From Bdellovibrionales bacterium RIFOXYD12_FULL_39_22 (GTDB taxonomy: Bacteria; Bdellovibrionota; Bacteriovoracia; Bacteriovoracales; Bacteriovoracaceae): DNA of 64,000 bases. The notes below the pieces were generated by a model. That model made no database searches, had not been told where the DNA came from, and saw only the letters and a list, made by a program, of their open reading frames with translations. How positions within the stretch are numbered: the stretch's first letter is position 1; each line of letters starts with the position of its first letter. Below are positions 4,844-6,222 of this stretch, one piece after another. Location of the stretch: NCBI GenBank assembly GCA_001770205.1, contig MEQL01000039.1, forward strand, positions 136,787 through 200,786, in the 5' to 3' direction. The translations under genes and the position numbers were made by a program.

Positions 4844-5140
4844 TTATGCAGCCTTTTGCCTTTTGAAGGTGAACGAAACATCAAGAACAAGAGCAATCTT
4901 GGCCAGAAAATCAAAGCTAACCTCACTTACCAATCCAGACTCCATTCTGGCAATGGCCGGTTGTTTTGTTTTAACCATTTGAGCAAGCTCTGCCTGAGAA
5001 ACTCCTTGCTCGATTCTAGATTTTTTAAGTTTATCAATTAGCTTTTTTTTCTGCTGAATTATGGCCATTTCCAGCTCTGATAGGCCTAGAAATGTTCCAA
5101 ATTCCTTAGAGTTTTTAAATCTTTTTTGAGTCTCTTTCAT
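4844..5140 (-). CDS. XRE-family HTH antitoxin (HigA-like)
   Basis: SQAELAQMVKTKQPAIARMESG HTH; 4-bp ATGA overlap with upstream toxin. Confidence 0.85.
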   Translation of the reverse strand: MKETQKRFKNSKEFGTFLGLSELEMAIIQQKKKLIDKLKKSRIEQGVSQAELAQMVKTKQPAIARMESGLVSEVSFDFLAKIALVLDVSFTFKRQKAA

Positions 5141-5457
5141 ACGCTTAGGCTCCTAATTCTACTTCTCAGTAGATCGACCGTTCTTTTATCTATGGCCTGT
5201 TTCTTTTTTGAACAGGCGTGGACGATATAGATCGCATCATCAATTTTTATAAAATAAAACACTCTAAACTCACCTGCCCGGCCAGATAATCGCAGCTCAT
5301 GTAGGCCACTTGCTATCGAGGTCAACGGGCGAGAAATTGGCATTCCCAAAGATTTGCCACAGGAAAGATCATCAAAAAGAGCGTAAACATCCGCCATCAA
5401 TTCTCTTGGCCCATCTCTTAACTCTTTCTTCGCTTGTTTAAGAACAACAATTTCCAT
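5137..5457 (-). CDS. RelE/ParE-superfamily toxin (HigB/Gp49-like)
   Basis: GLHELRL...GEFRVFY...YIVHACSKKKQ motif; toxin-first order with HTH antitoxin. Confidence 0.85.
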   Translation of the reverse strand: MEIVVLKQAKKELRDGPRELMADVYALFDDLSCGKSLGMPISRPLTSIASGLHELRLSGRAGEFRVFYFIKIDDAIYIVHACSKKKQAIDKRTVDLLRSRIRSLSV

Positions 5458-6186
5458 CGAGTAGAATTACCCCCCAAACCTTATAAGTGTCTAGTGGTAA
5501 AACCCTCACAGATCCGTACGTGCGAATTTCCCGCATACGGCTCTTCAAAGTTTGTTTCAATTTGCTTGTTCTTTTTATCGAGTCGTTTTTGGTTCTCATT
5601 TTGATCTCCCAATAAAATTTTCTCCTACAAACCTATCCTTGATCCTTGTTGTTTCTTTACTCATTTTACCCGGATCTGTGTCTGGATGAGAAACTCGGAT
5701 TAAGGATCAAACTCTGTCGATCCCTTCGCTCCATGTCCATTACGACACTTCCTTGCTACTATGAATCGATCTGACTTCCAATTGAAGAATTTTGTTCGTC
5801 TTGAAATTGTCTTTTTTGATGTCACAGTTAAACATCTTGTTCCTCTCCAGTTGGATCTCCTAGGTCCCTATACCAACCATCGCCACATGCCATGCTCTCG
5901 GACCCCGGAAGGGGTAAGTTAATTGCTCAACCTACTATTGCCTTCGCACACATCATACAGTCTCGGCCCCTTCGACTCAGACCTATCTTTCGAAGCTGTA
6001 TTGCTTAAGGGTGATTGTCCCCACCCAATGGCCTATGGATCTCTCTGTCTACGCTTACCAATCTTCGTTACCTAAACTGGCCAAGACTCGATACATGGCC
6101 TCCATTACGAGCTACCATGGCCGGACTTGGTGGTCTTGTGTAAGGTCACCGCACCAGCAGATCGATATAAGTTGCGCCTAGTGCAC
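5456..6186 (-). mobile_element. ORF-less group II intron (about 731 nt)
   Basis: Minus strand: 5' GTGCAC (variant of GUGYG); domain V GAGCCGTATGCGGGAAATTCGCACGTACGGATC with AGC triad and AC bulge; domain VI with bulged A and 3' end CTACTCGAT; DIII-like GATCGATTCATAGTAGC...GCGAAGGGATCGA; short domain IV closed by CAGAGTTTG/CAAACTTTG with no RT ORF. Confidence 0.9.
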
Positions 6187-6194
6187 ATAATTAC

Positions 6195-6222
6195 CAATAT
6201 AACAGATTTGTTATATTGTCAA
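6195..6222 (-). promoter_or_regulatory. Putative TA promoter with overlapping palindromic operator
   Basis: TTGACA (6222-6217) and extended -10 TGnTATATT (6204-6196); 10-bp inverted repeat CAATATAACA-N4-TGTTATATTG overlaps it; spacer is only 15 nt. Confidence 0.65.

Follow-up and report, generated by a model that had tools for sequence, protein, structure and literature searches.

A group II intron without an open reading frame in the start codon of a HigB-like toxin gene, and the insertion of its lineage at predicted leaderless start codons

The locus and its intron

A 64,000-nucleotide stretch of the genome of Bdellovibrionales bacterium RIFOXYD12_FULL_39_22 (GenBank assembly GCA_001770205.1, contig MEQL01000039.1, positions 136,787–200,786; hereafter the window) encodes on its minus strand a toxin-antitoxin (TA) module of the HigBA type, in which the start codon of the toxin gene is interrupted by a 731-nt group II intron without an open reading frame (ORF). 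We interpret this intron as, very probably, a non-autonomous copy, deleted for its reverse transcriptase (RT) gene, of a mobile group II lineage that inserts at predicted leaderless start codons, the toxin gene being one site of many. The features of the locus are given below in window coordinates.

4844..5140 (−): ORF of a helix-turn-helix (HTH; XRE-type) antitoxin, 98 aa, whose ATG overlaps the toxin stop codon (ATGA)
5137..5457 (−): ORF of a Gp49/HigB-like toxin, 106 aa, whose ATG is made of the intron's AT and the exon's G
5150..5154 (−): ribosome-binding site AGGAG of the antitoxin gene, 9 nt 5′ of its ATG
5456..6186 (−): ORF-less group II intron, 731 nt, delimited by Rfam, by a hidden Markov model (HMM) of the 5′ end and by the empty site
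5456..5545 (−): intron domains V/VI, RF00029 (52.8 bits, cut-off 40), ending exactly at 5456
5666..5740 (−): remnant of the intron-encoded protein gene, 24 codons, starting MDMERR (relatives' proteins start MPMERR or MRTERR)
5893..6129 (−): ribozyme domains, RF02005 group-II-D1D4-6 (101.9 bits, cut-off 49, model positions 1–225 of 225)
5952..5956 (−): best-supported exon-binding site 1 (EBS1), AUGAU, in a terminal hairpin loop, with five pairs to exon AUUAU (−5 to −1), one of them G-U
6182..6186 (−): 5′ motif GUGCA, with A at position 5, where G is usual
6187..6188 (−): last two bases of the 5′ exon, AT, which are bases 1–2 of the native start codon by empty-site comparison with the paralogue L060
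6196..6201 (−): −10 box TATATT, preceded by TGT (extended −10 type), 7 nt 5′ of the A of the native ATG
6199..6214 (−): operator-like palindrome ATAAC-N6-GTTAT, between the −35 and −10 elements and overlapping the −10 box
6217..6222 (−): −35 hexamer TTGACA of the TA promoter, the same hexamer as in intron-less homologues

A preliminary description, made from the sequence alone, had read the element as a group II intron that lacks an ORF and interrupts the ATG of a TA toxin, and both parts of that reading are borne out by family models. RF02005 and RF00029 both match above their cut-offs, the former within the range of the full-length relatives (80.5–107.6 bits). The toxin ORF matches Pfam Gp49 (4.2e-16, profile positions 1–88 of 90) and starts MEIVVLKQ, in alignment with the first residues of its homologues; the antitoxin ORF matches HTH_3 (3.5e-12). 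Domain V matches the lineage consensus, with compensatory changes across relatives, and a bulged branch-point A is predicted in domain VI at 5462. The element thus shows the hallmarks of a group II intron, namely the catalytic AGC in domain V, a bulged A 7–8 nt from the 3′ end and a terminal AY.

The intron starts GUGCA at 6186 and ends AU at 5456. Both boundaries, placed at these positions in the preliminary description, are confirmed to the base at the sequence level by comparison with an empty site of the same genome. This site is an intron-less toxin paralogue (contig C19 of assembly G000, locus L060) whose protein is 89% identical; it has the same −35 TTGACA and the same ATAAC-N6-GTTAT palindrome, and the number of bases from the GTTATAT motif to ATGGA is equal in the paralogue and in the intron-removed window, with no indel. 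The HMM for the 5′ end of the lineage was seeded partly with the window's own 5′ end, and the 5′ boundary therefore rests on the empty site and on the GT[A/G]CG start shared by the relatives. No joint skipping 5456–6186, such as an intron-less allele would give, was found across 4800–6600 in the contigs of four metagenome runs, which by their nature cannot show absence, and contig pieces span both intron junctions in three runs.

With 6186–5456 cut out, TATATT is followed by 7 nt and ATG-GAA-ATT. The terminal AU of the intron and the first G of the exon together form a new start codon across the 3′ junction (5457–5455), exon joining restores the same ATG, and the 106-aa toxin ORF is found intact, as had been described. 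The promoter-proximal ATG (6188–6186) opens the 27-codon frame predicted earlier. Across 38 introns, the frame that runs from the 5′-junction ATG into the intron measures 6–51 codons; its length is not conserved, and there is no sign of a conserved peptide. The GGGGGG run that had been singled out as similar to a Shine–Dalgarno (SD) sequence (5475–5470) lies 12 nt 5′ of the rebuilt ATG on the 3′ strand of domain VI, and is paired within that domain according to the predicted fold as well as to 12 aligned relatives.

Leaderless architecture of the toxin gene

Toxin homologues occur in 55 of 237 family genomes, this one included (E up to 1e-10; family matches at most 81% identical), and the 20 loci that were inspected contain no intron. 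In 10 of the 13 closest intron-less homologues (L060, L041–L048, L052), the start codon lies 6–8 nt past a −10-like hexamer that overlaps the GTTAT half-site; the exceptions are L049 (4–5 nt), L050 (11 nt) and L051 (12 nt, with AAGGAG). Because these intron-less homologues show the promoter and then the ATG directly, the toxin gene appears to be natively of the leaderless type, in agreement with the arrangement proposed in the preliminary description, and A6188 is the predicted transcription start. The toxin family may often be organised in this leaderless way: distant homologues (L053–L059, 40–48% identity) have another promoter palindrome, of the GTGTCT...AGACAC type, with the start codon a few bases after it.

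The 13 closest intron-less homologues (L060, L041–L052) retain the ATAAC-N6-GTTAT palindrome with slight variation. HigBA-type loci are usually autoregulated, and by this analogy the antitoxin probably binds the palindrome. A third GTTAT half-site is found 5′ of the −35 box in the window (6225–6229, minus strand), giving GTTAT-N10-ATAAC-N6-GTTAT; family homologues keep just the ATAAC-N6-GTTAT part, without the third half-site. A promoter scan returned no minus-strand promoter upstream of the intron (4 sites in the region versus 6.2 expected). It missed the TA promoter itself because the 15-nt spacing between its −35 and −10 elements falls outside the scan's 16–18-nt spacer rule.

Insertion habit of the lineage

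Relatives of the intron were gathered with the RT of a full-length relative, which gave 18 loci on genome contigs and 52 on metagenome contigs, and their junctions were set with two small HMMs built from known intron ends. In a first survey, within Bacteriovoracaceae, the intron's AT together with the exon's G opened long N-terminal ORFs in most relatives. The 3′ HMM gave 74 matches, including the window, of which 68 extend to the model end and score 50 or more; six were set aside because less than 12 nt follows them, and the rest represent 58 distinct 3′ sites. The intron ends AT at 57 of the 58, and the first exon base is G at 50 (C at 4, A at 3, T at 1). At two sites the next intron follows directly, a tandem that would be expected if the 5′ junction of a resident intron (AT/G) is itself a target. 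In these tandems (L088 1685/1686; L090 1568/1569), the last base of one intron adjoins the first base of the next. The fate of the reading frame at the 56 non-tandem 3′ sites is as follows.

Closed ORF of at least 60 codons from the junction ATG: 14 of 56
Open for at least 60 codons to the contig end: 12 of 56
Open for fewer than 60 codons to the contig end: 10 of 56
ORF of 30–59 codons: 5 of 56
ORF of fewer than 30 codons: 6 of 56
Without a start codon: 9 of 56

For two of the ten short open cases, a duplicate record extends further (L030, open for 211 codons; L015, 28 codons). As a control, random ATGs from the same flanks open an ORF of at least 60 codons in 185 of 1616 cases (11.4%). The rebuilt ATG starts genuine genes of diverse kinds: 17 of the 22 junction ORFs scanned match a Pfam family, and profile starts (positions 1–4) fall within 5–31 residues of the junction ATG. 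Examples are listed as the residue of the junction ORF and the profile position with which it aligns.

PilM_2, residue 5 to position 1; ACR_tran, 5 to 2; DsbH-like, 7 to 1
NhaA, residue 16 to position 2; response regulator, 12 to 2
MurJ, residue 31 to position 1; M48_N, 29 to 1

In the RecJ junction ORF, the DHH profile begins at residue 56. A BrnT toxin gene and two small HTH genes are also targets of the lineage.

The 5′ junctions were compared at 47 distinct non-tandem sites, each preceded by 45 nt or more of sequence. The 5′ exon ends AT at 35 of them, position counts over the 47 sites give TAnAAT at −14 to −9, and a TANNNT hexamer ends 8 or 9 nt 5′ of the junction at 30. This distance is kept at 9 of the 12 sites that do not end AT, and an SD-like motif (GGAG, GAGG or AGGA) occurs at one site of the 47. 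In the genome control, the first ATG of 2409 long ORFs, the hexamer is present in 126 cases (5.2%) and an SD-like motif in 1020 (42%); among random ATGs, 42 of 1341 (3%) have the hexamer at that distance. A −35 match of at least 4/6 at a spacing of 15–18 nt accompanies 16 of the 30 junction hexamers versus 167 of 856 random hexamers, the latter drawn from this genome, whose base composition differs from that of the metagenome sites. The gap between hexamer and A is 6–7 nt, and the A of the ATG is therefore the expected +1, placing the lineage two bases past the predicted transcription start. Because the higB-like gene has the same leaderless architecture, it is an eligible landing site among many.

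A few loci show other registers. The intron follows the whole ATG in L102 and lies between A and TG in L070, and L107 is also listed among the shifted-register sub-lineages. The site is GT/G in L094 and L072, where the unspliced form has ATG in place of a native GTG start, and a GTGCGCCACGAA subgroup (L024, L025, L067, L069) has different exon ends.

How the target is read

The amount of exon sequence that the intron reads is best seen in one Bdellovibrionaceae metagenome-assembled genome (L026, L027, L031, L038), where three copies are identical over 1934 nt. These copies lie in the start codons of NhaA, YceD and PilM, and their 5′ exons have just (C/T)AT in common; base pairing with the exon must therefore be very short. 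A fourth copy in the same genome, with seven differences and A for G at intron position 1, interrupts the start codon of a gene for a BrnT toxin. In L038, a further 5′ end, the fifth, is present about 750 nt downstream (position 4744).

To locate the pairing partner, every alignment column was scanned for complementarity to each intron's own exon (28 introns, 200 permutations). A column in a loop starting AUG makes 3.96 of 5 pairs with the intron's own exon versus 3.40 with permuted exons, a value reached in 0 of 200 permutations, and is the best-supported EBS1. The EBS1 of the preliminary description (GCAATT, 5926–5921) was given up: its hairpin varies in length and sequence among relatives, with a loop of 2–4 nt in some, and it is the other column that covaries with the exon. 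In the same scan, the best columns for an EBS2 that would pair with the −10 box reach 3.3–3.4 of 6 pairs versus 3.0–3.1 permuted, and 2–5 of 200 permutations, without correction for the number of columns scanned, reach the observed value; we do not count them as evidence. A hairpin upstream of the insertion, of the kind used by group IIC introns, is not enriched in the 45 nt preceding the 47 sites (mean z −0.48, z below −2 in 5 of 47) and was rejected as a landmark. The 45 nt 5′ of the window intron fold as DNA with −7.9 kcal/mol. Recognition of the −10 landmark by the RT, or via the opened promoter, are the two hypotheses that we put forward.

A target this short could also have produced the pattern by selection only. 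In such an origin, the intron would enter any (C/T)AT/G, and promoter-proximal copies would become over-represented via transcription, spread or tolerance, with no active recognition. The very short intron-binding site 1 (IBS1), reduced to (C/T)AT in the three identical copies, fits this explanation, as do the 17 of 47 sites without the hexamer at a fixed distance and the failure to find convincing complementarity between the intron and the −10 region. Yet a short target predicts that neutral intergenic insertions dominate, whereas 30 of 47 sites carry the hexamer at 8–9 nt, a distance seen at 3% of random ATGs and 5% of gene starts and kept at 9 of the 12 junctions not ending AT. We regard an origin by selection only as unlikely.

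State of the window copy

The window copy is non-autonomous and RT-deleted. Its similarity to full-length introns ends at intron nt 480 and restarts at about nt 621. An intact ORF of 459–467 aa is present in 37 of 38 full-length relatives (389 aa in L083), and two relatives' RT ORFs compared with Pfam match RVT_1 as the sole family, with no endonuclease match. The closest full-length relatives collected are 70–75% identical in the 5′ ribozyme part, and the parent intron was not found among them. No GIIM match, no match to a relative's RT and no second domain V were found in the 62-contig, 94.6%-complete assembly, whose intron content is one full copy and one 203-nt fragment on contig C34.

The copy also departs from its lineage in sequence. 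Among 173 columns with almost no variation in the 38 other introns, it deviates at 12, the second highest count of 39, most having 0–3, and five of the 12 deviations fall in the first 27 nt and are common to the C34 fragment. Intron position 5, G in the group II 5′ consensus used here (GUGYG), is G in 37 of 38 relatives and in the C34 fragment, and A in the window copy. The fragment itself (C34 of G000, 5616–5818; L002 1501–1703, minus strand; 203 nt, 97% identical, G at position 5) has a 5′ flank ending AT and stops abruptly at intron nt 203, beside the 3′ end of a convergent gene. Such a 3′-truncated copy is unlike the outcome of incomplete reverse transcription.

The source metagenomes contain further intron sequences. 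An intron-related contig of 1,879 nt is present in three runs that hold the locus (X1, X3, X8), with seven differences in 55 nt (6040–6094) and depths of 29.6, 185 and 17.8 versus 14.4, 88 and 7.4 for the window contigs. Loose contig ends carry related domain VI sequences and another 3′ exon. The depth of domain V/VI is 5–6 times that of the flanks in the metagenome runs, so intron relatives are multi-copy in these communities.

Several observations weigh against our interpretation of an RT-deleted copy from a lineage that seeks leaderless start codons. First, with respect to the copy, the 1,879-nt contig may be a full-length, maturase-encoding relative in the same organism that was left out of the bin. 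The Rfam scores of the window ribozyme are as high as those of full-length relatives, with domain V at consensus, and the A at position 5 is shared with one relative, L098, which is full-length and has an intact RT gene; for these reasons, the copy may still be able to splice. Second, with respect to the lineage, the loci were collected by similarity to one RT and to the window intron and are thus relatives, not independent samples. A short ORF or no start codon follows at 20 of 56 non-tandem 3′ junctions, and the hexamer at 8–9 nt is absent from 17 of 47 5′ junctions. Third, the leaderless status of the toxin gene and the 2-nt 5′ exon are predictions from promoter geometry.

Consequences for the toxin

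In our interpretation, a lineage with an RF02005-type ribozyme and a 459–467-aa RT without an endonuclease domain inserts in sense orientation between bases 2 and 3 of the start codon, 6–7 nt past the −10 box. RNA from the TA promoter would start with the A or a neighbouring base, so that its 5′ exon would measure about 2 nt, probably too short to stay bound for ligation, and productive splicing is for this reason unlikely. The caveat of the preliminary description, that a leaderless start leaves a 5′ exon of only a few nt, was apt. Ribosomes at the 5′-terminal AUG would read 27 codons into domain I, and the toxin would be made solely by weak initiation at the internal, rebuilt AUG, with a folded leader of 731 nt ahead of it and the SD-like run paired. 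Since the antitoxin gene keeps its own AGGAG, toxin would fall relative to antitoxin; a lowered toxin:antitoxin ratio would be harmless to the cell, which would explain why the insertion is tolerated. The intron most likely damps or silences toxin translation and does not gate it. As the toxin ORF remains intact, the insertion must be recent, or else the gene is still expressed to some degree. A stealth intron that uses the TA locus as a harmless landing place had been suggested before, and this suggestion comes close to the reading favoured here.

The preliminary description had also proposed that the intron, through its splicing or folding, serves the TA system, with the cell or the module using it to set the toxin:antitoxin ratio. 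The parts that such a splicing-gated system would need look intact, namely the toxin ORF, the ribozyme core and domains V/VI. With the SD-like run sequestered in the predicted domain VI fold, toxin translation could in principle respond to folding, the antitoxin gene has its own ribosome-binding site, and the source metagenomes possibly hold a full-length relative. Against these points, the same lineage occupies the start codons of dozens of unrelated genes, and the TA module does not need the intron, as seen from the intron-less paralogue and from homologues in 54 of 236 other family genomes, 20 inspected loci being intron-less. The predicted 5′ exon is 2 nt, the G5-to-A change is specific to the window copy when compared with the C34 fragment and 37 of 38 relatives, and a maturase gene was not found in the assembly. 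Insertion into the start codon is a habit of the lineage and not specific to this locus; the TA-specific reading is not supported, and we consider a splicing-gated module very unlikely.

A further possibility, which we hold tentatively and below the RT-deleted copy of a start-codon lineage, is that the endonuclease-less lineage is specialised on leaderless genes. It would recognise the −10-marked or melted start (−10 box, 6–7 nt, AT/G), enter two bases past the transcription start and substitute for the leaderless start an SD-like run and AUG of its own, located in domain VI. Host protein would then be made from unspliced RNA, and the toxin, conditional and usually silent, would need the opening of domain VI or rare splicing.

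Elsewhere in the window, a tRNA gene lies at 3669–3741 on the plus strand (Rfam tRNA, 68.2 bits), with an anticodon loop read by eye as CGU (threonine).

Comparison with known systems

The module shares with HigBA-type TA loci the position of the toxin gene first, an HTH_3 antitoxin gene with an overlapping ATGA and a palindromic operator in the promoter. It differs in the group II intron within the toxin start codon, an arrangement for which our literature search turned up no published example. What follows for this particular module is limited: its toxin is probably silenced or damped by the intron, and the toxin gene is an incidental target. The main interest would lie at the level of the lineage, which appears, from sequence, to be a mobile family whose members home to leaderless start codons close to promoters and restore the ATG there. 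Such a habit is relevant to two questions: how an intron with next to no 5′ exon comes to be expressed and spliced out, and how introns in essential genes are tolerated by their hosts, the targets including RecJ, MurJ and NhaA. It also matters for annotation, because what is annotated as the ‘start codon’ of these genes belongs in part to the intron.

In bacteria, group II introns are generally considered to stay out of genes, and the specialised targets known so far are terminators, attC sites and, for one IIB1 clade, start or stop codons. Group IIC introns insert after Rho-independent terminators or into attC sites. The present lineage resembles them in its RT without an endonuclease domain and its choice of a signal class as target, and probably also in a very short IBS1 and a single IBS3 base; the landmark, in contrast, is a −10 box followed by ATG and not a terminator stem-loop. 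Group IIC introns pair through an IBS1 of 3–4 nt and IBS3, with no EBS2; here the identical copies have just (C/T)AT/G in common, an EBS1 column is supported, and no convincing EBS2 was found. The top three solved-structure matches of the RT are enzymes that we take to be of the IIC type.

Dependence on a protein supplied in trans has parallels as well. ORF-less introns of the Thermosynechococcus elongatus TeI3 family are reportedly mobilised or spliced in trans. The Trichodesmium dnaN introns are likewise ORF-less and depend on an RT/maturase in trans, according to the summary in PMC12584367. As far as such summaries describe them, introns of the TeI3/Trichodesmium type share with the window copy an internally deleted RT gene, a retained ribozyme and a probable need for a related RT/maturase; here, in contrast, no cognate RT gene was found in the assembly, which has just one full copy and a fragment.

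The closest precedent in target choice is a group of IIB1 introns at initiation and termination codons, which includes Avi.groEL and EcKTE56.groEL. In PMC12584367, Michel et al. 2007 are credited with a monophyletic IIB1 clade that has a 300–700-nt 5′-subterminal insertion and a CL1 RT with an endonuclease domain. The groEL introns lie between bases 2 and 3 of the stop codon, which is rebuilt (Gomes et al. 2025, PMC12584367), and the start- and stop-codon introns of the clade are reported there from proteobacteria and from housekeeping genes, with a site-finding mechanism stated to be unknown. Membership of the present lineage in this clade would account for insertion between codon bases 2 and 3 and for the rebuilt codon. 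As the clade is characterised in that text, however, its domain I carries an insertion of 300–700 nt, whereas just 57 nt precede the RF02005 match here, and its CL1 RT has an endonuclease domain, whereas the relatives' RT is 459–467 aa long with RVT_1 as the sole match (two scanned). The best solved-RT matches are enzymes of about 427 aa, one of them named GsI-IIC RT by its depositors. Membership in the IIB1 clade is therefore extremely unlikely.

Among published lineages, our literature search found none that targets leaderless starts and none that occupies start codons without an endonuclease, with the limit that Michel et al. 2007 may mention such introns; the terms ‘start codon’ and ‘initiation codon’ are not mentioned in PMC3552965 or PMC4424553. 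If our reading is true, the introns described here form a second, structurally distinct lineage and a tractable system for how a ribonucleoprotein finds a functional class of sites, the candidate mechanisms being that the RT recognises the −10 sequence or that the open complex at the promoter is exploited. Set beside the IIB1 clade as portrayed in PMC12584367, the two have in common that they are tied to translation signals and rebuild the codon that they interrupt (a stop codon there, the ATG here). They differ in that the present lineage has no large insertion, its full-length members having about 450 nt before the RT gene, and in that it occupies promoter-adjacent, predicted leaderless starts of all kinds of genes.

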